From a virus (taxonomy: Duplodnaviria > Caudoviricetes), in IMG/VR virus record IMGVR_UViG_3300006099_000008, positions 1,219 to 65,218 of that record: a stretch of 64,000 nucleotides of DNA, one strand, 5' to 3'. Positions 1 through 63,494 of the stretch are shown in pieces (the first letter of the stretch is position 1; every line of letters begins with the position of its first letter). Made by a program: the position numbers and the translations under genes. The notes under the pieces were generated by a model. It saw only the letters and a list, made by a program, of their open reading frames with translations. It was not told where the DNA came from and did not search any database.

Positions 1-138
1 ACTGATGAAGAAGGAAGAAGAAGCCAAAGGTTTATTGGCAGAAAAGCAACCGCAAATGTTAATCCTGATAATGGGGTTATAACAACGGTTTGGAAAACCG
101 GACATCGTGATATTAAAAAATATTCAAAGAAAAGGTGA
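1..138 (+). CDS. 3' end of a probable polymorphic-toxin nuclease gene (partial, runs off the window)
   Basis: Frame 1 is open from base 1: TDEEGRRSQRFIGRKATANVNPDNGVITTVWKTGHRDIKKYSKKR*. The FIG-x-KAT-x-x-VNP-x-x-G-x-ITTVW pattern resembles colicin E5-like toxin tips. Its TGA (136-138) overlaps the GTG start of the next gene. Confidence 0.6.
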   Translation, partial: TDEEGRRSQRFIGRKATANVNPDNGVITTVWKTGHRDIKKYSKKR

Positions 139-506
139 AAAACATGTTTACAGAAAAGGAAATAAAACTTATGCGCTCTATAGGCTTAGACTGTGATTTC
201 CAAAATTTATCTGAAGACGATGACTATTGGGCTGAAATAGAAGACAAAGTTGCAGATAAACTTGCAATATCTGGGTTTGATGAAGATTATTACCCAAACG
301 AAATAGGCTGGATTTGTGAAGGAATAATTGACAAGATACCTAAACCAAAGTTAGTGCGCTGGACAGGCCGGACTAAACGCCCTTATCTTACGCATAACGA
401 AGAATACGTTGTTATGTCGGAAAAAGAGGGCGAGTATGAAATTATCGACGACACTGATGAATTTAAATTCTATCCTACAGAAGGCTTTGTTGAGGTTGAG
501 GAATGA
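135..506 (+). CDS. immunity-like protein, tandem paralogue 1 (two-domain)
   Basis: Small acidic ORF coupled by GTGA overlap to the upstream toxin-like gene; near-identical to the next three ORFs. Confidence 0.6.
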   Translation: MKNMFTEKEIKLMRSIGLDCDFQNLSEDDDYWAEIEDKVADKLAISGFDEDYYPNEIGWICEGIIDKIPKPKLVRWTGRTKRPYLTHNEEYVVMSEKEGEYEIIDDTDEFKFYPTEGFVEVEE

Positions 507-871
507 AAAAAGAGATGTTTACAGAAAAAGAAATAAAACTAATGCGTTCTATAGGCCTTGATTTTGACTTCCAAAATATTTCCGGCGATCAATGGGCAGA
601 AATTGAAGAAAAAGTAGGAGACAAATTAGTTATATCAGGATTGGACAAAGACTATTACCCAAACGAAATAGGCTGGATTTGCGAAGGAATAATTGACAAG
701 ATACCAAAATCGAAGTTAGTATGTTGGACTGGCCGAACTAAACGTCCCTATCTTACACATAATGAAGAATATATTGTTATGTCAGAAAAAGAGGGCGAGT
801 ATGAAATTATCGATGACACTGATGAAATTAAATTTTATCCCGCGGAAGGCTTTGTTGAGGTGGAACGATGA
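503..871 (+). CDS. immunity-like protein, tandem paralogue 2
   Basis: Direct repeat of 135..506 with an ATGA overlap. Confidence 0.6.
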   Translation: MKKEMFTEKEIKLMRSIGLDFDFQNISGDQWAEIEEKVGDKLVISGLDKDYYPNEIGWICEGIIDKIPKSKLVCWTGRTKRPYLTHNEEYIVMSEKEGEYEIIDDTDEIKFYPAEGFVEVER

Positions 872-1236
872 AAAAAGAGATATTTACGGAAAAAGAAATA
901 AAACTGATGCGTTCTATAGGTCTTGATTTTGACTTCCAAAATATTTCCGGCGATCAATGGGCTGAGATTGAAGAAAAAGTTGGCGCTGAACTAATGTACG
1001 AAGGGTTTGACGATGATTACCGTGCCAACGAAATAGGCTGGATTTGCGAAGGAATAATCGACAAGATACCAAAATCGAAACTAGTGCGCTGGACTGGCCG
1101 AACTAAACGTCCTTATCTTACGCATAACGAAGAATACGTTGTTATGTCGGAAAAAGAGGGAGAGTATGAAATTATTGACGATACTGACGAGATTAAATTT
1201 TATCCCGCAGAAGGCTTTGTTGAGGTGGAGGAATGA
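868..1236 (+). CDS. immunity-like protein, tandem paralogue 3
   Basis: Direct repeat with an ATGA overlap. Confidence 0.6.
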   Translation: MKKEIFTEKEIKLMRSIGLDFDFQNISGDQWAEIEEKVGAELMYEGFDDDYRANEIGWICEGIIDKIPKSKLVRWTGRTKRPYLTHNEEYVVMSEKEGEYEIIDDTDEIKFYPAEGFVEVEE

Positions 1237-1472
1237 AAAAAGAGATATTTACAGAAAAAGAAATAAAACTAATGCGTTCTATAGGCTTAGACTGTGATTT
1301 CCAAAATTTGTCTGAAGATGATGACTATTGGGCCGAAATAGAAGACAAAGTTGCAGATAAATTGGTAATCGATGGTCTTGAAGTTATAAACGAAGGGCTT
1401 GAAAATGAGGATTATTATTCCAATGAAATAGGCATAATTTGTGATTCAATAATTGACAAGATACCGCATTAG
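1233..1472 (+). CDS. immunity-like protein, tandem paralogue 4 (N-terminal domain only)
   Basis: Same N-terminal domain; stops after IIDKIPH and lacks the WTGRT..LTH domain. Confidence 0.55.
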   Translation: MKKEIFTEKEIKLMRSIGLDCDFQNLSEDDDYWAEIEDKVADKLVIDGLEVINEGLENEDYYSNEIGIICDSIIDKIPH

Positions 1473-1822: not shown

Positions 1823-2713
1823 ATGTATATAACAGTGAAGCAAGCAGCCGAAACGTGGGGCATTTCTGACAGAAAAGTAAGGGCTTTATGCGCCGAAGGA
1901 AAAATTGCAGGAGCTGTGAAAAAGGGGAAAATTTGGGAAATACCTGAAAACACTGGGAAACCAAACGACGGAGTAAGTGATGAAATTGAAGATATTTTAA
2001 GCGAAATAGATAAAAAGAAACGCGAGCTGGACAAGAAAAGGCCATTAACTGCCGGAGAAGCGGAAAGACTTTCGGAGGAGTTCGTCGTTGAGTATACTTA
2101 TAATTCCAACGCCATTGAGGGAAACACTCTTACATTAAGAGAAACGGACATGGTTCTGCGCGGACTAACCATTGACAAGAAGCCGCTGAAAGAACACATG
2201 GAAGCGGTTGGCCACAAAGAAGCGTTCGAATTTGTGGGCGATTTGGTGAAGGAAAACACCGAAATTTCAGAAAGTGTTATAAAGCAGATTCACTATCTTG
2301 TGCTTTCGGGGAAAAGAGAAGACCGCGGCGTTTACCGGAAGGTTCCCGTCAAAATTATGGGGGCCTCAAACGATCCTGTACAGCCATATATGATTCAGCC
2401 CAAAATGGAACAGCTTCTTTTGGATTATAAAAAAAGCACAGGGCATATTGTTAAAAGGCTGGCTCGTTTTCATGCAGATTTCGAGGGCGTTCACCCGTTT
2501 ATTGACGGAAATGGAAGAACGGGAAGACTTCTTGTTAATTTGGAATTAATGAAAGCCGGTTATCCGCCAATAGACATAAAATTTACTGACCGCATGGAAT
2601 ACTATAAGGCGTTTGACGAATATTATTCGAGAAACAATATTTGTGCAATGGAAAAATTGTTTGCCATGTATATAAATGGCAGACTTGATTTTTATTTGGA
2701 TATTTTAAAATAA
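1823..2713 (+). CDS. fic: Fic-domain protein with N-terminal excisionase-like HTH
   Basis: Canonical HPFIDGNGRTGR motif; SNAIEG inhibitory motif; N-terminal VKQAAETWGISDRKVR HTH. Confidence 0.92.
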   Translation: MYITVKQAAETWGISDRKVRALCAEGKIAGAVKKGKIWEIPENTGKPNDGVSDEIEDILSEIDKKKRELDKKRPLTAGEAERLSEEFVVEYTYNSNAIEGNTLTLRETDMVLRGLTIDKKPLKEHMEAVGHKEAFEFVGDLVKENTEISESVIKQIHYLVLSGKREDRGVYRKVPVKIMGASNDPVQPYMIQPKMEQLLLDYKKSTGHIVKRLARFHADFEGVHPFIDGNGRTGRLLVNLELMKAGYPPIDIKFTDRMEYYKAFDEYYSRNNICAMEKLFAMYINGRLDFYLDILK

Positions 2714-2740
2714 CAAAGCGGGGTGAAAAACAGAAAGGAC

Positions 2741-3100
2741 ATGGAAAGCATACTTACATCAATAAAAAAGCTGTTGGGGATTGCGGAGGAATATGAACAC
2801 TTTGACGCGGATTTGATTATACACATCAATTCCGCGTTTTCTATTTTAACACAGCTGGGAGTCGGGCCGGCAGAAGGGTTTTCGATACAAGACGAGGACA
2901 CCATTTGGACAGACTTTATACCGGCAGGAGGCAAGCTGGAGTTTATTAAATCCTACGTACATTTGAAGGTAAAGCTTCTTTTCGATCCTCCGCTTAACTC
3001 GGCGGTTATAGAGTCGATAAACAGAACTCTTGGAGAGCTGGAATGGAGAATTAATGTTGAAGCTGACTGCGGAAGAAGGGAGGAAAATCAAAATGGATAA
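2741..3100 (+). CDS. probable head-tail connector / head completion protein
   Basis: MESILTSIKKLLGI..FDADLIIHINSAF..LTQLGVGP pattern; position in the head module; GAAAGGAC RBS before ATG 2741. Confidence 0.55.
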   Translation: MESILTSIKKLLGIAEEYEHFDADLIIHINSAFSILTQLGVGPAEGFSIQDEDTIWTDFIPAGGKLEFIKSYVHLKVKLLFDPPLNSAVIESINRTLGELEWRINVEADCGRREENQNG

Positions 3101-3503
3101 TATTGCTTTAAAGCATCATGGAATCAAAGGCATGAAATGGGGGATAAGAAGAACTCCGGCACAGCTTGGACGGCAAAGCGGCAGTTATAAAAAAGCCGCG
3201 GACAGAAAGGAGAAAACAAGCAGAAAAGCCGCCGTTAAGAACAGGCGTACTCTTTCCGACGTTGATCTTGAAAAAAAGGTAAAGCGACTGAAGCTGGAAA
3301 AGGAATTTAAAGAGCTTACATACTCGGATATTGCTCCAGGGAAAAAATTTGTTTCAGACGTTATGGCTTCAGCCGGAAAGAAAGCGCTTACAGTTGCCGC
3401 CGCCGGCGCGGTTTCCTATGGCGTAAAAGTGGCCATGACAAAGGAGTTCAGCATCAAGGAAGCGGCAAGCTATATTGCGGCTAACCCTAACAAAAAGAAA
3501 TAA
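3093..3503 (+). CDS. small basic protein with LKH-HGIKGMKWG leader (probable virion/head protein)
   Basis: GGGAGG RBS before ATG 3093; leader shared with other proteins in the window. Confidence 0.7.
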   Translation: MDNIALKHHGIKGMKWGIRRTPAQLGRQSGSYKKAADRKEKTSRKAAVKNRRTLSDVDLEKKVKRLKLEKEFKELTYSDIAPGKKFVSDVMASAGKKALTVAAAGAVSYGVKVAMTKEFSIKEAASYIAANPNKKK

Positions 3504-3517
3504 GGAGGAGATGAGAT

Positions 3518-5263
3518 ATGGCGTTATCAAATACCGCCGTTCCAAAATATTACGGCATGTTTCGGGACGCCGTAATAAGGGGAGAAATACCCATATGCAA
3601 GGAAATTTCAATGGAAATGAACCGCATAGACGCGCTTATTGCAAACAAGGAATATTATTATGACGATCAGGCTGTTGAGGGGTTTATACATTACTGTGAG
3701 AGGGAACTGACACTGACAGACGGAGCCGATCTCAACCTTCTTGACACATTCAAGCTTTGGGCCGAGGAGATTTTTGGCTGGTATTACTTTGACGAAAGAA
3801 GCGTTTATGAGCCTTTCCCAGATGGGCATGGAGGACATTATGTGACTAAAGTGATTAAAAAAAGGCTTGTGAACAAGCAGTATCTTATTGTGGCAAGAGG
3901 CGCGGCAAAATCCATGTACGGTTCATGCATTCAAAGCTACTTCCTTAATGTTGACACAACCACGACACATCAAATAACAACGGCGCCGACAATGAAGCAG
4001 GCGGAGGAAGTATTGTCGCCAATTCAAACGTCAATAACACGTTCACGAGGGCCGCTGTTTAAATTCCTTACGGAAGGGTCTTTACAAAACACTACAGGCT
4101 CAAAGGCAAACCGAATGAAGCTGGCCTCTACGAAGAAAGGAATTGAAAACTTTTTAACCGGCTCGCTGCTTGAAATAAGGCCCATGAGCATTAACAAGCT
4201 GCAAGGGCTTAGAACAAAGGTGGCAACCATTGACGAATGGCTTTCCGGCGACATAAGGGAAGACGTTGTGGGCGCTATCGAACAGGGAGCCTCAAAGGTG
4301 GACGACTATCTGATAGTGGCCATGAGTTCGGAAGGAACTGTCCGCAACGGCAGCGGAGATACAATCAAAATGGAGCTTATGGACATACTGAAAGGCGACT
4401 ATGAAAATCCGCATGTGTCCATATGGTACTATAAACTGGACTCCGTTGACGAGGTGCCAAACCCCGATCTCTGGTTAAAGGCCAATCCTAATATAGGAAA
4501 GACAGTTAGCTATGAAACGTATCAGCTTGACGTGGAAAGGGCCGAAAAAGCGCCTGCCACGCGCAATGATATTCTCGCAAAGCGCTTTGGCATTCCGATG
4601 GAGGGATATACATATTTCTTCACATACGAGGAAACGCTGCCCCACAGAAAAAGAAATTACTGGCAAATGCCATGCGCGCTGGGGGCGGACTTATCACAGG
4701 GGGACGACTTTTGTGCATTTACATTTTTATTTCCACTTGCAAACGGCGAGTTTGGCATTAAGACGCGGAACTATATTTCATCGCTGACATTAATGAAGCT
4801 TCCGGCGGCTATGAGGATTAAATACGATCAGTTTATGGCTGAGGGAAGTCTTATTGTTTTGGAAGGAACTGTTCTGGACATGATACAGGTTTATGAGGAC
4901 CTGGACAACCATATTGTAAAGTACGGATATGACGTGCGCTGCTTTGGATATGACCCTTACAATGCAAAGGATTTTGTTGAAAGATGGGTTTCCGAAAACG
5001 GGCCATTTGGCGTTGAAAAGGTTATTCAAGGGGCAAAGACGGAGTCTGTGCCGCTGGGAGAGCTGAAAAAGCTTTCGGAGGAAAGAATGCTTTTGTTTGA
5101 CGAAGAACTGATGACCTTTGCCATGGGCAACTGCATTGCCATGGAGGACACAAACGGAAACAGGAAGCTCTTGAAAAGGCGGTACGATCAGAAAATCGAC
5201 GCGGTTGCGGCCATGATGGACGCTTATGTGGCTTATAAGCTGAATAGAGAAGCGTTTGAATAG
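3518..5263 (+). CDS. terL: terminase large subunit
   Basis: Walker A-like VARGAAKS, Walker B IDE, nuclease GADLSQGDD and C-terminal KIDAVAA motifs; lies upstream of the portal. Confidence 0.9.
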   Translation: MALSNTAVPKYYGMFRDAVIRGEIPICKEISMEMNRIDALIANKEYYYDDQAVEGFIHYCERELTLTDGADLNLLDTFKLWAEEIFGWYYFDERSVYEPFPDGHGGHYVTKVIKKRLVNKQYLIVARGAAKSMYGSCIQSYFLNVDTTTTHQITTAPTMKQAEEVLSPIQTSITRSRGPLFKFLTEGSLQNTTGSKANRMKLASTKKGIENFLTGSLLEIRPMSINKLQGLRTKVATIDEWLSGDIREDVVGAIEQGASKVDDYLIVAMSSEGTVRNGSGDTIKMELMDILKGDYENPHVSIWYYKLDSVDEVPNPDLWLKANPNIGKTVSYETYQLDVERAEKAPATRNDILAKRFGIPMEGYTYFFTYEETLPHRKRNYWQMPCALGADLSQGDDFCAFTFLFPLANGEFGIKTRNYISSLTLMKLPAAMRIKYDQFMAEGSLIVLEGTVLDMIQVYEDLDNHIVKYGYDVRCFGYDPYNAKDFVERWVSENGPFGVEKVIQGAKTESVPLGELKKLSEERMLLFDEELMTFAMGNCIAMEDTNGNRKLLKRRYDQKIDAVAAMMDAYVAYKLNREAFE

Positions 5264-5809: not shown

Positions 5810-7444
5810 ATGGAGTTATCAGTCAGTTCCAGGCTAAAGCACGCTTGGAACGCTTTTATGAACAAAGACCCAACAAAGTATTATGGGAACATTGGAGCCG
5901 GGTATTATTACAGGCCGGACAGGCCGAGGCTTACAAGGGGAAACGAGCGTTCAATCGTTACGTCGGTTTATAACCGAATTGCGCTGGACGCGGCGGCAAT
6001 AAACATACAGCATGTTCAGCTTGATGAAAACGACAGATTTTTATCCATAGTTGAGTCCGGATTTAACAACTGCCTTACAATGGAGGCCAATATAGACCAA
6101 ACGGCAAGGGCCTTTATTCAGGACGTGGTTATGTCTATGCTGGACGAAGGGTGCGTTGCCATTATACCAATTGACACAAGCCTAAATCCCGAGGTCACAG
6201 GCTCCTATGACATACTCACCATGAGGGCGGGAAAAATAATCGAATGGCACCCGCAGCATGTGAAAGCAAGGGTTTATAACGAAAAAACAGGGAACAAAGA
6301 GGACATACTTGTGCCCAAAGGCGTGGCGGCTATTATAGAAAATCCGCTTTACGCCGTTATAAACGAGCCTAATTCCACCATGCAAAGGCTTATACGAAAG
6401 CTAAACCTTTTGGACGCGGTGGACGAGCAAAGCAGCTCCGGAAAGCTGGATTTGATTATACAGCTTCCATATGTTATCAAATCGGAGGCAAGAAGACAGC
6501 AGGCGGAAAACAGAAGACGGGAAATGGAGGATCAGCTGGCGGGATCGAAATACGGCATTGCCTATGCCGATGGTACGGAAAGAATAACACAGCTTAACCG
6601 CCCTGTTGAGAACAATCTAATGAAGCAGATTGAATACCTGACGAGTATGCTTTACAGCCAGTTGGGGATCACTCAAAGCATATTAGATGGAACAGCAGAC
6701 GACAAAACTATGTTAAACTATTACAACCGCACGATTGAGCCTATTATTTCGGCCATAGTTGACGAGATGAAGCGAAAGTTCCTCACAAAAACGGCGAGAA
6801 GCCAAAAGAAGTCTATAATGTTCTTCCGCGATCCTTTCAAGCTGGTTCCCGTTGCGGAGCTGGCGGAGATTGCCGACAAGTTTACAAGAAACGAGATTGC
6901 AACTTCAAACGAAATGAGGCAGGCCATAGGCTGGAAGCCTTCCAAGGACCCGAGCGCCGACGAGCTTAGAAACAAGAACTTAAGCGCGCCTAAGGGAGAG
7001 GAAAATGCGCCGAAGGAAAAGGAAGAAGATGAAGACGACAGCCATTTGGAGCACCATGGCATAAAGGGACAAAAATGGGGCGTTAAGAACGGGCCGCCTT
7101 ATCCGATTGGAAGCGGCGGTGAAAAAGAGGTTGCGAAAAGCGGGAAAGGTGATACAATAAAATTAACTGGGCACAAAAGTCCATCTCTACATGGAACACC
7201 CAACACCGTAGTTGACCATTTATCAGATAATGGCGATGTTAAAGCTAGAGTTTTTTATGATAATTTAGGGCACAAAATAAACGAGATACATACTTCAGAT
7301 CACGGCCGTCCTAAGTATCATGATTTTGGAGAGCATGGCGAACATGCGCACGATTACGAATGGAACGAAAATGGTGAAATGATTGATAGAAGCCCGAGAG
7401 AAATTACTTCAAATGAACGAAAGGAGAATAAAGACATATTATGA
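5810..7444 (+). CDS. portal protein with C-terminal LEH-HGIKGQKWG leader plus His-rich toxin-like domain
   Basis: About aa 1-395 is HK97-type portal-like by position and sequence; then an acidic linker, the leader at aa 413-424, and a domain homologous to 33236..33700. Confidence 0.85.
   Translation: MELSVSSRLKHAWNAFMNKDPTKYYGNIGAGYYYRPDRPRLTRGNERSIVTSVYNRIALDAAAINIQHVQLDENDRFLSIVESGFNNCLTMEANIDQTARAFIQDVVMSMLDEGCVAIIPIDTSLNPEVTGSYDILTMRAGKIIEWHPQHVKARVYNEKTGNKEDILVPKGVAAIIENPLYAVINEPNSTMQRLIRKLNLLDAVDEQSSSGKLDLIIQLPYVIKSEARRQQAENRRREMEDQLAGSKYGIAYADGTERITQLNRPVENNLMKQIEYLTSMLYSQLGITQSILDGTADDKTMLNYYNRTIEPIISAIVDEMKRKFLTKTARSQKKSIMFFRDPFKLVPVAELAEIADKFTRNEIATSNEMRQAIGWKPSKDPSADELRNKNLSAPKGEENAPKEKEEDEDDSHLEHHGIKGQKWGVKNGPPYPIGSGGEKEVAKSGKGDTIKLTGHKSPSLHGTPNTVVDHLSDNGDVKARVFYDNLGHKINEIHTSDHGRPKYHDFGEHGEHAHDYEWNENGEMIDRSPREITSNERKENKDIL
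7131..7158 (+). promoter_or_regulatory. sigmaA-like promoter embedded in the portal-toxin linker
   Basis: TTGCGA-16-TACAAT with TGn. Confidence 0.5.
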
Positions 7445-7674
7445 ATGCAGATGAATTACGTCAAGAAATATCGTATGAGTATAATGATGTGAGTTTTTAT
7501 TATAATGGCAAACCATCGGGCATTTCGCCAGAAGTTCATAATTCCATACCAACTTTTTATGTGTGGTATGGCGATGAAGAAAAAGAATATTCTGATGTAA
7601 ATAAATTGATGTCGGATAAATTCTTTGACGGAAAATCGTTGGAAGAAATTGCTGATAAGGTCGACTATTTTTAG
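7441..7674 (+). CDS. probable cognate immunity protein of the portal-fused toxin
   Basis: ATGA overlap with the portal stop; homologous to 33697..33939 (ND..F.Y.G...G.......WYG.E...Y.D.......F..GKS). Confidence 0.65.
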   Translation: MNADELRQEISYEYNDVSFYYNGKPSGISPEVHNSIPTFYVWYGDEEKEYSDVNKLMSDKFFDGKSLEEIADKVDYF

Positions 7675-7688
7675 AAAGAGGAAACTAA

Positions 7689-7901
7689 ATGACTATAGAA
7701 CAATACAGCAAGGTTATTCTAAAAGACGGAAGAACTGCTACCATTGTGGAAATTTTGGAAGATGGGGCTACCTATTTAGTCGATGTGGATTTGCCGGGCC
7801 CAGACTGGGATACTATAGAAATTTTGCAAGATGATATCAAGAGCTTTACTTCATCTATATTTTCTCCAAAAAGATTTTTAATTTGGTTGAAGACGCCATG
7901 A
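7689..7901 (+). CDS. small SH3-like (DUF4926-like) immunity-type protein
   Basis: YSKVILKDGRTATIVEI pattern, similar to 51343..51540; RBS present. Confidence 0.5.
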   Translation: MTIEQYSKVILKDGRTATIVEILEDGATYLVDVDLPGPDWDTIEILQDDIKSFTSSIFSPKRFLIWLKTP

Positions 7902-8193
7902 AAAGCGTTTGAAACATGAAAGAAAATTGCACAGGAAGAAACAAAACAAGCAAGAGCCCTCCTTTCCCAAATAGCTCTTTCCTGTTTTGCGACAGGTTAG
8001 TCATCGAAATGAGCGTAACCTAATTTCTGAATTAGTTTTTGTATTTTTCTAATTCAGATTTATTTTTGCGGCTGCTTTCCGCTTTATAAATCTTAGATTT
8101 TTTATTCATATTACCCCTCTTTCTTGTGTATTTTCTTTCACTATACATCAATAAACAAAAAAATCAAGCAAAAGTTTGAGAGGTGATCATACT

Positions 8194-8334
8194 ATGGAAG
8201 TTCCAGTGAAAATAGACGTTGTTATAAATGTAGACGAAAAGTTGGACGAAACCATTGAAAAAACAAACCGACTTATAATTGCTTTACAGGAGGCAAAAAG
8301 AATTATTAATTCATTTTCATCGGAAGCAATGTAA
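8194..8334 (+). CDS. 46-aa hypothetical protein (not in the ORF track)
   Basis: GAGAGGTG RBS; MEVPVKIDVVINVDEKLDETIEKTNRLIIALQEAKRIINSFSSEAM. Confidence 0.5.
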   Translation: MEVPVKIDVVINVDEKLDETIEKTNRLIIALQEAKRIINSFSSEAM

Positions 8335-8968
8335 AGTTAATTTTATCCAAACCGAAACGAAGGTGATAAATATTATTGATCCTAAAAAAGTGCCGGAGCT
8401 TTCTGAACAGGAAAAATGGGTATGCACAGTAAAATGGTTAAATTCGCTATACAGCGGGCATTATGCCCTGCTTAACGGAGAGTTTACAAATTTAGAGGAA
8501 TATATCGAATATGCCGAAGAAGCAGAGCCATGCTCGAATGAATGCCCATATTATGAAAAATGCCCGAGTACGGCCAGGGAGCCATACAGACCATTTGTTC
8601 CAATTCCAATAATAGAGTGTTGGAGCGGTTTACCGGCGAAGGGAGCGTTGCAGGCCCAAGGTTTCTGGCAATGGGCAATCGGCGTAAGGGCAATGCCGGC
8701 CAGAAATAATAAAATGCCAAAAATTTCAATACCAAGGAGGTCGTACATGTTTAGCGAATACAATTACACATTTGAATACAATCCTAAAATAACGCTTAAA
8801 ATTGCGGGAGAGGAAGAGGTATATAAGCTGATGCGTAAGGCTCGCGATCAATTGCAAGACTTAATGATTACTATGCAAGAACTAACAAAACAAAAACTTA
8901 CGCTTGAAGCGACAATGAATCAGCCGCCAAACAAATCAGCGGCCGAGGATATGTATGACGGTGATTAA
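8279..8968 (+). CDS. hypothetical protein (start uncertain; second in-frame RBS and ATG at 8747)
   Basis: Open frame with a Cys cluster CSNECPYYEKC; AGGAGG precedes the internal ATG 8747. Confidence 0.4.
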   Translation: MLYRRQKELLIHFHRKQCKVNFIQTETKVINIIDPKKVPELSEQEKWVCTVKWLNSLYSGHYALLNGEFTNLEEYIEYAEEAEPCSNECPYYEKCPSTAREPYRPFVPIPIIECWSGLPAKGALQAQGFWQWAIGVRAMPARNNKMPKISIPRRSYMFSEYNYTFEYNPKITLKIAGEEEVYKLMRKARDQLQDLMITMQELTKQKLTLEATMNQPPNKSAAEDMYDGD

Positions 8969-9257: not shown

Positions 9258-11102
9258 ATGAAGTATGATTTCAGCGGCTGGGCCACGAGAAATAATCTCA
9301 AGTGCTCCGACGGCCGCACAATTATGAAGGACGCATTTAAGGAATGCGACGGACAAACCATACCCCTTGTTTGGAACCACCAGCACAATATTCCCGAAAA
9401 CATACTGGGGCACGCAATGCTGGAAAACCGAAACGAAGGAGTTTATGCCTACTGCAAATTTAACGAAACGGAAACGGGCCGAAACGCCAAAATGCTTGTG
9501 GAGCATGGCGACGTATCGGCTCTTTCTATTTATGCAAACCAACTGCGGCAGGAGGGCGGCAATGTTATACATGGAGCAATACGGGAGGTGAGCCTTGTTG
9601 TGGCCGGAGCCAATCCCGGGGCCTTTATAGACTCAATTATGAGCCATGGAGAGGAATCCAGCGAGGAGGCCGTTATATATACCGGCGAAGGTATAAGCCT
9701 TTATCATGCCGACAGCGCAAAACAAGAAGATAAAGGAGAAAAAGCTGAAAGCGGTAAGAGCGAAGAGAAGAAAGACGATGATAAAGATGAAACAATCGAA
9801 GACGTTTTTAACACGCTTAGCGAAAAACAAAAAAATGTTGTTTACGCCATGATAGGACAAATCATTGAAGATGACGATAAAACCGAAAAAGACAATAGCG
9901 AACCTAAGGGAGGAGATAACGACATGAAACACAACATATTCGAAAACGACGAAAAGCAGGACGACTTTCTCAGCCATGCCGACCAGGAAGGTATCATAAG
10001 CATGGCAAAATCCAACAGCGTTGGAAGCCTTCAGGCGGCAATAAGCCTTTACGCCGAAAACAACAAGGGGGTTTTGGCGCATGGAATTGACGATATAGAA
10101 TCGCTGTTCCCGGAATACAAGGACGTTCGTCCTGGAGCGCCGGAGCTTATACAGAGGGATCAGGGCTGGGTTTCAACCGTTATGCAGAAAACACACAAAA
10201 GCCCAATCAGCCGCATACGCACACGCCAGGCCGACGCAACGGGAACCGACCTTAGGGCATTTGGTTATCAGAAGGGCAAAAAGAAGCAGGTTGCCGGAAA
10301 CATTAAGCTGCTTAAAAGGACTACCGATCCGCAGACTGTTTACCGCAAGGACGCGCTGCACAGGGACGACATAATTGACATAACCGATTTCGACGTTGTG
10401 GAATACCAATATGGCATAATGCGGCAAAATCTTAACGAGGAGATCGCGACGGCCATAATGATTGGCGATGGGCGCGAGGACGGAGACGACATGAAGATCA
10501 GTGAGGATCATATCCGTTCCATATGGCATGACGACGATCTTTACACCATACATGCCGACGTGGATATCACAGCCGCGAAACGGGAGCTTCAGGGAACAAA
10601 TACGGGAGCTAATTTCGGAGAGAATTATGTGTATGCCGAGGCCATTATAACAGCGGCGCTTTACTCCCGCGAGAGATATAAGGGAAGCGGAACGCCGGAC
10701 TTCTACTGCACGCCGCATTTGCTCAACGTTATGCTGCTTGCCAGGGATTTGAACGGCCGCCGTATATATGATTCAAAGACTGATTTGGCAGCTGCGCTTA
10801 ATGTTGGGGCAATACACACTGCCGAGCAGTTTGAAGGGAAAACAAGAACAACTAAGGACAACAAGCAAAAGAAGCTGCTGGGCATATTTGTAAATCTTTC
10901 CGACTATCAGATCGGCTGCACAAAGGGCGGCGAAATTACAAGATTCAACCAGTTTGACATCGACTTCAACCAGGAGAAATATTTGATTGAGACACGCATT
11001 TCCGGCGCCCTTACGAGAATTTACTCCGCGATTGCTCTTGAGGAGGACATGACGAAAGCCACTGTTACTACGCCAGGCGAAGGAACAGAGGAAACGGAAT
11101 AA
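9258..11102 (+). CDS. prohead protease - scaffold - major capsid polyprotein
   Basis: N-terminal HK97-type protease (FSGWAT, LVWNHQH, EVSLVVAGANPGA), acidic scaffold, C-terminal capsid domain. Confidence 0.88.
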   Translation: MKYDFSGWATRNNLKCSDGRTIMKDAFKECDGQTIPLVWNHQHNIPENILGHAMLENRNEGVYAYCKFNETETGRNAKMLVEHGDVSALSIYANQLRQEGGNVIHGAIREVSLVVAGANPGAFIDSIMSHGEESSEEAVIYTGEGISLYHADSAKQEDKGEKAESGKSEEKKDDDKDETIEDVFNTLSEKQKNVVYAMIGQIIEDDDKTEKDNSEPKGGDNDMKHNIFENDEKQDDFLSHADQEGIISMAKSNSVGSLQAAISLYAENNKGVLAHGIDDIESLFPEYKDVRPGAPELIQRDQGWVSTVMQKTHKSPISRIRTRQADATGTDLRAFGYQKGKKKQVAGNIKLLKRTTDPQTVYRKDALHRDDIIDITDFDVVEYQYGIMRQNLNEEIATAIMIGDGREDGDDMKISEDHIRSIWHDDDLYTIHADVDITAAKRELQGTNTGANFGENYVYAEAIITAALYSRERYKGSGTPDFYCTPHLLNVMLLARDLNGRRIYDSKTDLAAALNVGAIHTAEQFEGKTRTTKDNKQKKLLGIFVNLSDYQIGCTKGGEITRFNQFDIDFNQEKYLIETRISGALTRIYSAIALEEDMTKATVTTPGEGTEETE

Positions 11103-30284: not shown

Positions 30285-31193
30285 ATGAATTTAGCAGAAT
30301 TGACAGATGAGTATTTATTTGACTGTGAATGCAGGAAGCTATCTAAGAAAACGGTGGAAAATTACAGGAAACAAATTGGATATTTGCTGCAATATCTGAA
30401 AGAGGAATGCAGCGTTACAGACATAGAAGAGATTAAGACCCGGCACATAAAACAGTATTTGCTGGCGAAGCAAAAGGCGGGGAACAAGCCTAATTATATT
30501 AACGACTTGCTCAAGGTTTATAAAACCATGTTCCGATATTTTTATAATGAAGGATATACGGAAACTTTGATTACCGAAAAAATACATAACGTTAAAAAGG
30601 AAAAGGTTATCATCAGAACTTTTACAAAAGAAAATGTAAAAGCCATGATAAATTTTTATAGTGGAAATGATTTTTTAAGTATACGAAATAAAACTATTAT
30701 GATTGTTTTGTTTGACACAGGTATTCGATTGTCGGAATTGCTTAATTTGAAAACCATTGATTTAAAGGAAGACTATATCATTGTTGTAAACGGAAAGGGA
30801 GGGAAAGACAGAGTTGTTCCCAAGAGCCCGTTCCTTTCAAAATGGCTTTTCAAGTATCAAAGCATAAGAAGAAGTTATTTTATAGACAGATATTTGGATA
30901 ACAAAGAGTTGTTTTTGAGCAAAAACTGTAAAAGGCTATCTCGTGAAATGGTGGAGAGGATTGTAAAAGATGTTGGAAAATTTGCCGGGGTATCTAAAGA
31001 GGTAAGAGTTTCGCCACATACTTGCAGGCATACATATGCGCAGATGCAGTTGAAAAACGGCCTAAATATATACAGCTTAAGCAGACTGTTAGGGCATGAA
31101 AATATATCTATTACACAAACATATTTGAACGGGATAAGAGACGAACAAGTTTTGATAGAAGGAAGGATATCAAGTCCGCTTATGAATTTATAG
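30285..31193 (+). CDS. int: tyrosine integrase / recombinase
   Basis: DTGIRLSEL (R), GKGGKDR (K), HTCRH (H-x-x-R), LGHENISITQTY (H, Y). Confidence 0.93.
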   Translation: MNLAELTDEYLFDCECRKLSKKTVENYRKQIGYLLQYLKEECSVTDIEEIKTRHIKQYLLAKQKAGNKPNYINDLLKVYKTMFRYFYNEGYTETLITEKIHNVKKEKVIIRTFTKENVKAMINFYSGNDFLSIRNKTIMIVLFDTGIRLSELLNLKTIDLKEDYIIVVNGKGGKDRVVPKSPFLSKWLFKYQSIRRSYFIDRYLDNKELFLSKNCKRLSREMVERIVKDVGKFAGVSKEVRVSPHTCRHTYAQMQLKNGLNIYSLSRLLGHENISITQTYLNGIRDEQVLIEGRISSPLMNL

Positions 31194-33131: not shown

Positions 33132-33235
33132 ATTTTTTAAATTTCCCGTACGCAGGTGACGGAAAAGTGTGGTATTTTGATATTTGAAAAATTCCCCAGG
33201 TGGGATTTTTTGAAAAAACGTTTTGGAAGGAGGGT

Positions 33236-33700
33236 ATGCAATTGCGACAATGGCTATACTACTATTGCCTTGAAATTCTAAGGTCTAAAGAGCTTTGTCA
33301 TTATGGCGTGAAAGGCATGAAGTGGGGCGTTAAAAGGACGCCGGAGGAGTTGGGGCGTAAAAGAGAAACTGCTATATCAGTTGAAAAAACAAATAGAGGT
33401 GGTATAATTAAGAAAACTTTTTACGGACATGTGAAGTCGCCAAGACAGGCAGAGCCTAACGCAATTATAGACTATATTTCTCATGAGGGAAAAGTTAATA
33501 AAAGAAGTTATTATGGTCCAGATGGATTCAAAATTAAAGATATTCATACTACGGATCACAAAAACCCCAAAGAACACCCTTATGGAAAAACGGGGGAACA
33601 TGCGCATGATTATACGTGGAATACAGACGGAACCCCGAAAAATAAAACGATAAGAGAACTTACAGAAAAGGAGAGAAAGGAGAATAGCGATATATTATGA
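33236..33700 (+). CDS. LCH-YGVKGMKWG leader plus His-rich toxin-like domain
   Basis: GGAAGGAGG RBS; the domain is homologous to the portal tail (IHT.DH..PK.H..G..GEHAHDY.WN..G...RE.T..ERKEN.DIL). Confidence 0.75.
   Translation: MQLRQWLYYYCLEILRSKELCHYGVKGMKWGVKRTPEELGRKRETAISVEKTNRGGIIKKTFYGHVKSPRQAEPNAIIDYISHEGKVNKRSYYGPDGFKIKDIHTTDHKNPKEHPYGKTGEHAHDYTWNTDGTPKNKTIRELTEKERKENSDIL
33381..33408 (+). promoter_or_regulatory. sigmaA-like promoter embedded in the toxin linker
   Basis: TTGAAA-16-TATAAT with TGn. Confidence 0.55.
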
Positions 33701-33939
33701 CTATAAGATATTTAAAAGATGCAGTAAAAGAGGGAAACGACTTTTACTTTCATTACAAGGGTGAAAACGCTGGTGTAGAATCTGCCGTCAAAGATTCTGT
33801 CGTGAAATATGAAGCTTGGTATGGTGAGGAAATAAGGCAATATGATGACTTTGACGATGTATTGAACGATAGATTTTATTGCGGAAAATCAATTTTAGAA
33901 TTATTAGCAAAAAATATTATAGAAATTAATTTTTCATAA
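33697..33939 (+). CDS. probable cognate immunity protein
   Basis: ATGA overlap; homologue of 7441..7674. Confidence 0.65.
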   Translation: MTIRYLKDAVKEGNDFYFHYKGENAGVESAVKDSVVKYEAWYGEEIRQYDDFDDVLNDRFYCGKSILELLAKNIIEINFS

Positions 33940-33999: not shown

Positions 34000-34158
34000 A
34001 TGAAAGTTAAATGGAAAGGAAAAACTGATTTTTTAATCTTAACGCATGACAAAATATATACAGTTCTTTCGATAGAGAAGGACTGGTATAGATTAGTTGA
34101 TGATAGCGGAGAAGATTATTTATATTCGCCCGAAAAGTTTGAAGTGATTGAAAACTAA
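34000..34158 (+). CDS. 52-aa orphan immunity-like protein (not in the ORF track)
   Basis: MKVKWKGKTDFLILTHDKIYTVLSIEKDWYRLVDDSGEDYLYSPEKFEVIEN aligns with the C-terminal domain of 135..1236. Confidence 0.65.
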   Translation: MKVKWKGKTDFLILTHDKIYTVLSIEKDWYRLVDDSGEDYLYSPEKFEVIEN

Positions 34159-50864: not shown

Positions 50865-51350
50865 ATGATAAAGAAATTTTATTTAGATATAGATAATCCA
50901 AAGGGAGGATTATATCATTATGGCGTTAAAGGTATGAAGTGGGGTGTTAGGAGGACGCCAGAACAGTTGGGGCATTTAAAATGTACAGTTGATAAATCAA
51001 AAGAACATAGTATAATGTCAAATGAGACCGTGTTAAGCAAGAAAGGCTTTATGATAAATGGCAGTAAAATTGTTGATTTTTTATTGAAACCAAAGGCTAA
51101 GCATTCACATGAATTTTTTAATGTTGGCTATACACCACAAGACAGCAGGAGGCTTTTTGAAGACATAGAGAAAGGCTATGATTTATCAAAGGCCACCGAT
51201 GTTGTCAAAATAAACGATATAGAAAAGTTTAGCATTTTTATGAATTTGGGAATAACTTCAAAAAGGCCTTTTAGAACAGTATGGCAAATTGATGGGCAAA
51301 ATTCAAAACCAAGATTAATCACAGCTCATAGGGAGGATAAAAATGTTTAA
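50865..51350 (+). CDS. LYH-YGVKGMKWG leader plus DUF6883-like toxin domain
   Basis: Leader, then KIVDFLL...KHSHEFF.VGY and FRTVWQID...PRLITAH. Confidence 0.7.
   Translation: MIKKFYLDIDNPKGGLYHYGVKGMKWGVRRTPEQLGHLKCTVDKSKEHSIMSNETVLSKKGFMINGSKIVDFLLKPKAKHSHEFFNVGYTPQDSRRLFEDIEKGYDLSKATDVVKINDIEKFSIFMNLGITSKRPFRTVWQIDGQNSKPRLITAHREDKNV
50989..51016 (+). promoter_or_regulatory. sigmaA-like promoter embedded in the toxin linker
   Basis: TTGATA-16-TATAAT. Confidence 0.55.
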
Positions 51351-51540
51351 ATTATACGATAAAGTTAAAATAAAGAAAAATGGAATAACTGGCGTAATTG
51401 TAGATATATATAAAGGGAAAAAAGGGATCATGTATACAATAGAAAGTGATACTAAAAGCTCAGACTATTCAGAAGGTGATTATAAATCGCTATGGCCACT
51501 ATATGATTGTATTTCTGATGATCTTGAATGTTTGAAATAA
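51343..51540 (+). CDS. DUF4926-like probable cognate immunity protein
   Basis: Overlaps the toxin stop; FKLYDKVKIKKNGITGVIVDI. Confidence 0.6.
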   Translation: MFKLYDKVKIKKNGITGVIVDIYKGKKGIMYTIESDTKSSDYSEGDYKSLWPLYDCISDDLECLK

Positions 51541-60740: not shown

Positions 60741-63494
60741 ATGAATCCGATTGCGGAGGAAATTTTAATGCACTATGGAATGCCAAAGCGTTCAGGACGT
60801 TATCCTTGGGGGTCTGGCAAAGATCCATATCAGCACAGCGGCGATTTTTTAAGCCGAGTTCAGGAGCTCAAAAAATCAGGTCTCAGCGAAACGAAAATTG
60901 CCGATACCATGGGATTATCCACAACGCAGCTTAGAACACAGATAAGCTTGGCTAAAGATGAAAGACGTTCTCTTCAGGTTGCGACAGCTAAAGGACTTAG
61001 GGAAAAGGGATATAGTCTAAATGAAATTGCCGAAAAGATGGGCTTTGCCAACGATTCGTCTGTAAGAACTCTTCTTAATGAAAATTCAGAGGCACGTATG
61101 AATCAGGCGAAGAAAACCGCCGAATTTCTTAAAAAGCAGATTGACGAAAAAGGAATGATTGACGTTGGCATAGGCGTGGAGCGCGAGCTGGGCATTTCAA
61201 AAGAGAAATTAAATCAGGCTTTGTACATGCTTGAAATGGAAGGTTATCCGGTTTATGGAGGCCGCGTTGATCAGGTTACTAACCCTGGCAGGAAAACAAC
61301 ATTAAAAGTGATTTGTCCTCCAAACACTGAACATAAAGAGATATACAATTTTGAAAATATTAACTCCTTAAGGGATTATATTTCCCATGATGACGGCGAA
61401 ACATTTGATCCGAAATTTGTTTATCCTAAAAGCATGGATTCAAAGCGGCTTAAAATAAGATACGCTGACGAGGGCGGAGTTGATAAAGACGGCGTTATCG
61501 AAATACGTCGCGGAGTCGACGACCTGTCTTTGGGAAATTCGCATTATGCTCAAGTTCGTATCCTTGTTGACGACACTCATTATATAAAAGGCATGGCCGT
61601 TTATTCAGATGATTTGCCTAAAGGCATTGACGTGCTCTTTAATACAAATAAAAAGAGCGGAACGGCAAAAGAAGACGTTTTAAAACCTATTAAAAACGAT
61701 CCCGACAATCCATTTGGGTCGTTGATTAAAGATGGTATTAACGATCCTGACAGCGGCATTCCTGAAAGGGGAGGACAAAGCTACTACTATGATAAAAACG
61801 GAAAAAAGCAGTTATCTCTTATCAATAAACGCGCGGAAGAAGGCGATTGGGGCGAGTGGGCCGATAAGCTTCCTTCTCAGTTCCTTTCAAAACAGAGCAT
61901 CACATTGATAAAAAAGCAGCTCAACCTTGCAGCGGCAGACAAGCAGTTTGAATTTGATGAAATTTGCTCTCTTACAAACCCTACAGTCAAGAAAAATTTG
62001 TTAAAATCTTTTGCTGATGACTGCGACTCCGCGGCAGTTCACCTACAGGCAGCCGCTTTGCCAAGGCAGAAGTATCAGGTTATTCTCCCTCTTACATCAA
62101 TTAAGGATAATGAAGTGTACGCTCCAAACTACAACGATGGCGAAACAGTTGCTTTAATTCGTTATCCGCATGGCGGCACGTTTGAGATTCCTATTCTTAA
62201 AGTAAATAATAAACAGGCGGAAGGACGGAAGATTTTAGGGAATACTCCAGCTGACGCCATAGGCATTAATAAAAAGGTTGCTGACAGGCTTTCTGGAGCT
62301 GATTTCGACGGCGATACTGTTATGGTTATTCCATGCAATTCATCAAGAAGCAAAGTGAAGATTACATCTACTTCGCAACTAAAAGGGCTTGAAGGCTTCG
62401 ATCCAAAGATGGATTACGGAACTGTACAGAACGGAGACAATTACTATAACAACGCTGGACACAAGATAAAAGTAATGAGCAATACCCAGACAGAAATGGG
62501 AAAGATTTCAAACTTAATTACTGACATGACACTTAAGGGTGCTACACAGGACGAGCTGGCGAGAGCGGTGCGGCACAGTATGGTTGTCATTGACGCTGAG
62601 AAGCATAAGCTTGACTATAAGCAAAGTGAACGTGACAATGGTATCACTTCTTTGAAGAAAAAGTATCAGGCTCATGAAGACAATGACAGATACGGAGGAG
62701 CGTCTACTTTGATTTCAAGGGCAAAGTCCGAGGTTTCTGTTTTAAAAAGAAAGGGCAGCCCTACCATTGACAGGGAGACAGGAGAGCTGAGCTGGAAGAC
62801 TGTTAACGAGGAGTATGTTGACAAGACGGGGCGCGTTAAAACAAGAATGCAAAAGAGTACCCGTATGGCTGAAACAAAAGACGCCCGTACTCTCATATCA
62901 GACGCCGACACTCTGGCTGAAAGGGCTTATGCAGATTATGCCAACAAAATGAAAGCACTTGCCAATCAAGCCCGCAAAGAGATGGTCACTACCGGCAAAA
63001 TAAAATACTCGGCCTCTGCTAAAAGTACATATCAGCAAGAGGTAGACTCCCTTATGGCAAAGCTAAACGTAGCTTTAAAGAACGCTCCGCGCGAACGCCA
63101 TGCTCAGACTATGGCTAACTCTGTTGTAGACGCTAAGAAAAAACAAAACCCTGATATGACAAAGGCCGAGATTAAAAAAACCAGTCAGCAGGCATTAACA
63201 GCGGCGCGTACAACTGTTGGAGCTAAAAGAACTCCTGTTAATATAACGGACCGCGAATGGGAAGCGATTCAGGCTGGCGCAATAAGTGAAAACGTACTTA
63301 CGCAAATTCTTAATAACGCAGATATTGATGCTGTTAGACAAAGAGCAACGCCGCGTGCGGCAAATACTCTAAGCGTTGCTAAAACAAACCGCATTTCAGC
63401 ATTAAATGCGTCTGGATATACAACTTCTGAAATAGCCAAAGCCCTTGGAATATCGGCTTCAACTGTATCAAAGTATCTAAATGGAAAGGAGTGA
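60741..63494 (+). CDS. single-subunit two-barrel RNA polymerase homologue (YonO / cellular-RdRP-like) with HTH domains and LMH-YG leader
   Basis: QVR....IKGMAV, RYPHGG..EIP.L, ADRLSGADFDGD motifs; two N-terminal HTHs and one C-terminal HTH. Confidence 0.75.
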   Translation: MNPIAEEILMHYGMPKRSGRYPWGSGKDPYQHSGDFLSRVQELKKSGLSETKIADTMGLSTTQLRTQISLAKDERRSLQVATAKGLREKGYSLNEIAEKMGFANDSSVRTLLNENSEARMNQAKKTAEFLKKQIDEKGMIDVGIGVERELGISKEKLNQALYMLEMEGYPVYGGRVDQVTNPGRKTTLKVICPPNTEHKEIYNFENINSLRDYISHDDGETFDPKFVYPKSMDSKRLKIRYADEGGVDKDGVIEIRRGVDDLSLGNSHYAQVRILVDDTHYIKGMAVYSDDLPKGIDVLFNTNKKSGTAKEDVLKPIKNDPDNPFGSLIKDGINDPDSGIPERGGQSYYYDKNGKKQLSLINKRAEEGDWGEWADKLPSQFLSKQSITLIKKQLNLAAADKQFEFDEICSLTNPTVKKNLLKSFADDCDSAAVHLQAAALPRQKYQVILPLTSIKDNEVYAPNYNDGETVALIRYPHGGTFEIPILKVNNKQAEGRKILGNTPADAIGINKKVADRLSGADFDGDTVMVIPCNSSRSKVKITSTSQLKGLEGFDPKMDYGTVQNGDNYYNNAGHKIKVMSNTQTEMGKISNLITDMTLKGATQDELARAVRHSMVVIDAEKHKLDYKQSERDNGITSLKKKYQAHEDNDRYGGASTLISRAKSEVSVLKRKGSPTIDRETGELSWKTVNEEYVDKTGRVKTRMQKSTRMAETKDARTLISDADTLAERAYADYANKMKALANQARKEMVTTGKIKYSASAKSTYQQEVDSLMAKLNVALKNAPRERHAQTMANSVVDAKKKQNPDMTKAEIKKTSQQALTAARTTVGAKRTPVNITDREWEAIQAGAISENVLTQILNNADIDAVRQRATPRAANTLSVAKTNRISALNASGYTTSEIAKALGISASTVSKYLNGKE

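Follow-up and report, generated by a model that had tools for sequence, protein, structure and literature searches.

What is a histidine-rich domain doing at the end of a phage portal protein, and why does a small gene overlap its stop codon? The locus that raises this question lies at 5810–7901 of a 64,000-nt stretch of Caudoviricetes DNA, hereafter the window, which corresponds to the complete 65,218-bp viral record IMGVR_UViG_3300006099_000008 of IMG/VR minus its first 1,218 bases. The source setting is the mouse gut, and a tyrosine integrase encoded at 30285..31193 marks the phage as temperate. We propose, with a probability of roughly 60%, that the locus is a toxin/immunity cassette of the head-borne, MuF-type polymorphic kind that a MuF-less phage has acquired at the C-terminal end of its portal. 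As in the MuF toxin family, its variable C-terminal domain (the tip) is shared with other carriers, a small gene lies downstream and the locus belongs to the head/packaging module of a temperate phage; an N-terminal MuF domain (PF04233, PF06152) was not found in the fusion. The elements on which the argument is built are listed below, with lengths in amino acids (aa).

5810..7444, + strand: open reading frame of the portal fused to the candidate toxin, 544 aa in a single unbroken frame
5954..6928, + strand: HK97-type portal core (Pfam PF04860, Phage_portal), aa 49-373
6986..7045, + strand: acidic low-complexity linker, aa 393-412, with a predicted local distance difference test score (pLDDT) of about 50
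7031..7087, + strand: DUF7211 junction motif (LEHHGIKGQKWGV...; motif LEHHGIKGQKWG), aa 408-426, Pfam PF23847
7142..7441, + strand: His-rich all-beta C-terminal domain (the tip), aa 445-544, 95-100 aa long
7421..7426, + strand: AAGGAG Shine-Dalgarno sequence of the immunity-like gene, in the K-E codons of the conserved ERKEN tail
7441..7674, + strand: cognate immunity-like gene, 77 aa, acidic, alpha/beta, no known family
33200..33700, + strand: stand-alone paralogue, with a DUF7211 leader and the same His-rich domain
33697..33939, + strand: immunity-like paralogue, 80 aa, with ATGA overlap

The portal extension

The first part of the fusion protein is recognized as a portal by PF04860 (55.4 bits over aa 49-373, against a cut-off of 39.1) and by the PHROG portal family phrog_12, which matches the whole core (E 7e-46); TIGR01537 gives a partial match (49.7 bits, cut-off 112). 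Gut phage contigs and, remarkably, phages of Gordonia, Streptomyces, and Arthrobacter have portals with 62-84% identity to the core, and the portal gene of the window stands between the terminase gene TerL (3518..5263) and a fusion of S78 protease and major capsid protein, a synteny kept in relatives. An earlier model-made description based on the letters alone (the sequence-only reading) had traced the protein from portal to acidic linker, leader, and His-rich domain, a succession borne out by open reading frame, Pfam, and PHROG analyses.

That description also took the extension to be variable, and held that its conservation in all relatives as a structural part would contradict the proposal. 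Alignment with related phages agrees with variability. Related portals end at the position of the linker: among the 80 closest IMG/VR portals (78-84% identity), all complete ones have acidic tails of only 8-58 aa, with two exceptions, none has the extension, and DUF7211 is absent from every one; the tips, moreover, differ in sister phages. In the two nearest relatives that are annotated or readable and in the Gordonia phage Duffington, the portal stops 25-65 aa past the core and the protease-capsid fusion gene comes straight after it. DNA homology to extension-less phages is lost at about 6950-6972 and returns at about 9240, and the GC content falls from about 47% to 33-36% over about 7200 to 8400. 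These comparisons support the view that the extension is an accessory and variable module, an insert rather than a part of the portal. Two IMG/VR portals (L132 and L139) carry an unrelated Lys-rich C-terminal tail of 252-254 aa without DUF7211, which suggests either a further type of cargo on the portal or a tail that binds DNA.

A fusion known from a short-read metagenome could in principle be an artefact of assembly or a frameshift that joined the portal gene to a separate DUF7211-toxin gene, all the more as such genes also exist separately. Nevertheless, positions 6796-7900 are matched with zero differences by a contig of 4,479 nt that comes from an independent mouse-gut study, and contigs of two further studies bridge the passages from core to motif and from motif to tip. 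Fused frames of 540-549 aa recur in diverged phages at 68-78% identity, and a DUF7211 gene, although found at most 3.5 kb upstream of the portal in 70 of the 80 relatives, was in none of them a separate gene downstream. An artefact, which the sequence-only reading had named as fatal to its proposal, is thus highly improbable. DNA nearly identical to 6600..7900 occurs in mouse-gut metagenomes from at least four separate studies, implying that this phage is common in the laboratory or wild mouse microbiota.

Tip, partner gene, and their exchange

One indication of a polymorphic toxin locus comes from sister phages. In L009-L011 (one Joint Genome Institute metagenome and two metagenome-assembled genomes, MAGs) and P0188-P0190, a portal of 540-544 aa has the same linker and DUF7211 junction followed, from about aa 450, by an unrelated tip, and this same other tip is found on a MuF protein (P0192). 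The breakpoint of the swap relative to L009 lies near 7159. After the tip of these phages come, in this order, an unrelated acidic gene of 77 aa, one of 71 aa, and an orphan homologue of the immunity-like gene, 68% identical to that of the window. From one carrier to another, the tip and its partner change together, and an exchange of this kind, leaving old immunity genes behind, is what characterizes polymorphic toxin loci.

The tip is a mobile module well beyond portals. An exhaustive HMMER search with its last 100 residues retrieved 439 cluster representatives, in which it always occupies the extreme C-terminus of proteins of 57-636 aa. Pfam annotation of the 73 longer carriers gave Phage_Mu_F (25), Phage_min_cap2 or MuF2 (23), VG15 (4), DUF7211 (3), and portal (1). 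In IMG/VR, the architectures are portal-DUF7211-tip, DUF5662-DUF7211-tip, MuF1-tip, MuF2-tip, and DUF7211-tip, the first of them including a 549-aa protein with the same fused frame (L013). The tip ends a “head morphogenesis (SPP1 gp7 family)” protein in pneumococcal prophages such as IPP40 and Spn1, as well as proteins of S. mitis phages, S. suis phages, and the C. difficile phage phiCDKH02; in a bacterial contig of 309 kb, it sits on a truncated MuF remnant amid unrelated genes with the partner still next to it. The DUF5662-DUF7211-tip proteins are recurrent (L015-L036, 293-344 aa), and DUF5662 may represent another carrier or a second effector domain. Within the window itself, the C-terminal part of the portal aligns over 136 residues with the protein encoded at 33200..33700 (45% identity, E 1e-33), confirming the homology with a stand-alone gene that had been noticed from the sequence. 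The start of this gene is ambiguous, at the GTG in 33200, the ATG in 33236, or that of a public gene call of 152 aa.

The partner gene is nearly always present. The two immunity-like genes of the window share 36% identity (E 1e-15) and match PHROG families of unknown function common to both. At both loci, the tip ends in the same manner (...gatatattATGA and ...gacatattATGA), with a 4-nt ATGA overlap of stop and start codons, so that the reported junction into homologous small acidic genes stands; similarities of this strength exceed chance by a wide margin. As the ERKENxDIL end is encoded by ...AAGGAG...ttATGA, the tip also supplies the ribosome-binding site and the start codon of its partner, and a Shine-Dalgarno-like core was present in 18 of 22 diverse tip loci. 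A homologue of gene 7441 directly follows the tip gene in 153 of 159 independent loci. In IMG/VR, a homologue of 74-81 aa comes next in 79 of 80 loci, the single exception running off its contig, and the overlap is mostly the 4-nt ATGA (13 nt in six of the 79); in an independent set of bacterial genomes, the partner comes next in 74 of 79 loci, 60 of them with the 4-nt overlap. Two tip subtypes pair with two partner subtypes, which differ from each other by a 3-residue indel. The layout of a toxin followed by an overlapping immunity gene, as anticipated by the sequence-only reading, therefore holds in its order: the tip is always C-terminal and the partner near-obligatory. A sequence-profile search of the PDB with the immunity-like protein returned only spurious superoxide dismutase matches, and NCBIfam yielded no useful names.

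Possible activity and delivery of the tip

What might the tip do? No Pfam family matches this region. An AlphaFold2 model made with 150 homologues shows a six-stranded beta domain with a short C-terminal helix (pLDDT >90), preceded by a linker and a DUF7211 motif that are predicted to be disordered. The invariant residues of the tip are R480, Y483, H498, H504, G507, G510, E511, H512, H514, Y516, D542, and L544, and their His/Glu cluster suggests a metal or general-base site. The nuclease, possibly Ntox24-like, that had been proposed from the His pattern was not recovered. Foldseek and an exhaustive VIA-align search with the tip model found nothing above noise and detected neither a nuclease nor another known fold, and a sequence-profile search of the PDB with the tip gave no match. 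The Ntox24 model (PF15529) had no match in the tip protein at E<=1 or in the whole 65-kb genome at E<=10, and membership in this family is not supported, although a remote homology is conceivable; the model touches 3 of the 150 tip relatives (E about 0.01), Ntox24 occurs in 12% of the members of one neighbor cluster in the ESM Atlas, and a search for Ntox24 members in 401 Bacillota genomes found none. The sole recurring weak fold resemblance was to the YD hairpins of Rhs/teneurin proteins, and one RHS protein matches the tip query through its repeats. Nonetheless, the RHS/YD repeat model (PF05593) does not match the tip, and two of the 150 relatives match RHS_repeat. The tip resembles Ntox24 and RHS/YD proteins in being all-beta with conserved Tyr and His, but neither model matches it and the structural match is not significant. 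Based on the His cluster and on the base rate of MuF tips, more than half of which are nucleases (PMC5576092), a metal-dependent enzyme acting on nucleic acid seems the most likely identity.

The absence of any recognized toxin fold or catalytic family, together with the YD-repeat-like beta sheet, leaves room for a different function. The tip could be a non-toxic accessory of the head interior, binding metal or DNA, helping ejection, or countering host defense, with the small acidic protein as its chaperone or inhibitor. Many MuF C-terminal extensions are functionally unknown (PMC5576092), and Iyer et al. see MuF and portal fusions as injected counter-defense effectors (PMC5512222). We consider this unlikely, since the cassette is swapped leaving orphan partner genes, another copy, encoded as a stand-alone gene, is located away from the structural module, and chromosomal copies on truncated MuF remnants near unrelated genes keep the partner. 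A near-obligate and translationally coupled partner is what one expects of a harmful protein in need of neutralization.

If the locus is indeed a portal-borne toxin/immunity cassette, the late-expressed fusion would place up to 12 tips in the head, on the portal crown, the number of copies per virion following textbook portal stoichiometry. The small protein would bind these tips and neutralize them, in lysogens and producing cells alike. Each tip, probably a metal-dependent enzyme using its invariant His/Glu cluster, most likely on nucleic acid, would be freed by proteolysis near the DUF7211 junction and would then act in a competing cell or in one that has just been infected. DUF7211 itself would probably serve as a head-targeting and/or processing tag common to other cargo proteins of the phage. 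The cleavage at LEH that had been put forward is purely hypothetical, and ejection of the tip into the target cell is entirely conjectural.

Alternatively, the pair might act inside the lysogen or the producing cell, as a toxin-antitoxin-like addiction module or through abortive infection or superinfection exclusion, with no delivery by the virion and with the fusion as a tolerated by-product. The phage is temperate, duplicated pairs lie in low-GC, moron-like inserts, no sign of release from the portal was found, and an internal promoter is possible: immediately ahead of the tip, the linker contains a promoter-like site (7131..7158; TTGCGA-16-TACAAT, extended by TG) that, if functional, could express the putative immunity gene in lysogens. 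This explanation appears quite improbable, because the in-frame fusion has been kept in several diverged lineages and with two different tips, because the same tips are overwhelmingly found on late-expressed head proteins, and because the toxin-first, partner-second order without a DNA-binding domain is unlike that of classical type II toxin-antitoxin systems.

Several points weigh against a portal-borne toxin. The toxicity of the domain family is putative. Unless it is cleaved off, a tip covalently joined to the portal stays confined to the head, and the cleavage site is hypothetical. The promoter-like match is ordinary (9/12), in a region that has 12 such sites where 6.6 +/- 2.3 are expected. 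Finally, the predicted complex of tip and partner backs their pairing but amounts to a weak pass: its interaction prediction score (ipSAE) is 0.40, against 0.00 for the best control. In a calibration with 80 solved complexes and 110 mismatches, 58 of the former and 2 of the latter attained this mark, but those scoring 0.60 or under comprised only 7 of the 80 solved complexes plus both mismatches. Across prediction runs, at least 96% of the contacts agree and the partner has a pLDDT of at least 78.

An established family (Jamet et al. 2017, PMC5576092; Zhang et al. 2012, PMC3482391) consists of MuF proteins whose C-terminal toxin domains vary and whose immunity genes lie next to them; three of its tips, Apk2, Bxa, and EFV, are demonstrated toxic enzymes (PMC11699363, PMC10083569). 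Effectors fused to MuF or to the portal are likewise already on record (PMC5512222, PMC9503650). The locus resembles MuF toxins in its position in the head/packaging module of a temperate Firmicutes phage, its shared variable tip, and the small immunity-like gene directly downstream, and the very same tip is borne by MuF1 or MuF2 in most other phages. It differs from them in the portal carrier, a genome without MuF domain, the DUF7211 motif at the junction, and a tip and partner that fall outside the named toxin and immunity families. A portal-borne tip would also be present in 12 copies per virion, compared with the 1-2 reported for SPP1 gp7. The fusions described by Iyer, Burroughs, Aravind et al. 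(PBECR, 2H, InPase, Nudix, and ART; PMC5512222, PMC9503650) likewise place an effector on the portal C-terminus and are predicted to be packaged in the head; however, they are read mainly as counter-defense or takeover effectors, with no cognate immunity genes described, whereas the tip of the window behaves as a polymorphic cassette, with immunity and orphan immunity genes. The novelty here would therefore reside in an unnamed tip/immunity family, a swappable portal tip with orphan immunity genes, and a possible role for DUF7211. Prophages of the gut and of pathogens commonly carry head-borne toxins, only three of whose tips have been characterized, and the present pair occurs in hundreds of clusters with clear candidate active-site residues. 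Being tied to the portal, such a tip has a predictable stoichiometry and location.

The DUF7211 motif and the genomic surroundings

Is the junction motif a recombination handle or a signal? The portal copy is borderline, with 22.9 bits when the whole protein is searched and 27.4 bits in a genome scan (cut-off 27). The genome contains five matches above the cut-off, the four non-portal copies reaching 35-45 bits, and the consensus is LxH[HY]G[IV]KG[MQ]KWG. Besides the portal and the stand-alone paralogue, the window contains the following DUF7211-headed genes.

3030..3503, + strand: DUF7211-headed protein with a coiled-coil/hydrophobic tail, 157 aa, just upstream of TerL; a conserved member of the head module
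50865..51350, + strand: third DUF7211-headed gene, with an unrelated tip (weak DUF6883), 161 aa, followed by an overlapping 65-aa gene (51343..51540)

Related phages have three to six DUF7211 copies each, including those with plain portals. The five copies of this genome have only 33-57 of 72 nt in common, with exact runs of at most 13 nt, so that a role as a mere DNA recombination handle was rejected: the peptide is conserved but the DNA is not, which argues for a function of the peptide itself, be it head targeting, protease processing, or both. MuF-borne tips come without DUF7211, and no MuF domain was detected in the portal fusion or anywhere in the complete genome at E<=1. The motif and MuF thus look like alternative prefixes. 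A literature search for “DUF7211” and “GMKWG” found nothing relevant.

We tentatively suggest, while regarding it as doubtful, that DUF7211 is a head-targeting and/or prohead-protease processing tag, comparable in function to the capsid targeting sequence (CTS) of T4 or to an encapsulin cargo-loading peptide, that loads several effectors into the virions of MuF-less gut phages. In such a scheme, the cargo would comprise three toxin types, the conserved head-module protein, and perhaps an RNA-polymerase-like protein of 917 aa. Like the junction motifs VENN (CdiA), PT-TG, and DPxGL (Rhs), and like the CTS of T4 and the cargo-loading peptides of encapsulins, DUF7211 is a short, conserved, disorder-flanked peptide that either separates a constant carrier from a variable tip or heads diverse cargo, and that occurs in several proteins per genome. 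It bears no sequence relation to any of these motifs, and its role is putative. Were the suggestion correct, phage polymorphic toxins with this tag would form a trafficking class of their own, new to these toxins, of which the portal fusion would be an extreme form, with twelve tethered warheads freed at the tag, and DUF7211 may be the missing packaging or processing signal for cargo in MuF-less phages.

Other observations concern DUF7211-headed proteins or possible ones. Just upstream of the window (G000 943..1356; L008) lies a DUF7211-headed protein with a DUF4258 tip, a BECR-type toxin domain, followed by three tandem overlapping paralogues of about 122 aa (135..506, 503..871, and 868..1236), whose C-terminal part resembles the 52-aa gene at 34000..34158. 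The arrangement suggests a fourth toxin locus, one equipped with a poly-immunity array. The 917-aa protein (60741..63494) has a weak match to the two-barrel RNA-dependent RNA polymerase family PF05183 (E 0.007) and a C-terminal helix-turn-helix, and its equivalents of 907-965 aa in related phages show sub-threshold N-terminal DUF7211 matches; it may be a virion-associated YonO-like RNA polymerase.

The remaining features of the neighborhood are these.

7689..7901, + strand: small gene within the low-GC insert, with no consistent linkage to the candidate toxin
9258..11102, + strand: fusion of prohead protease (S78), scaffold, and major capsid protein, directly after the portal in relatives

The gene at 7689..7901 was rejected as a regular companion of the cassette, being present at 3 of 80 loci. 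Also in the insert, 8541..8695 (part of the open reading frame 8279..8968) has 67% DNA identity to an open reading frame that lies between terminase and portal in L009, and small genes appear to be shuffled around the portal. Upstream of the terminase, the window codes for a Fic/DOC-domain protein with an N-terminal helix-turn-helix (1823..2713) and a Phage_connect_2 connector (2723..3100). A one-protein scan of genome contigs recovered no relative; related prophage copies are found in Eubacterium and Clostridia MAGs. The portal core (5810..6985) retains 62-63% identity with Gordonia, Streptomyces, and Arthrobacter phages, which have the protease-capsid fusion gene in common with it, an unusually high conservation of the head module across host phyla.

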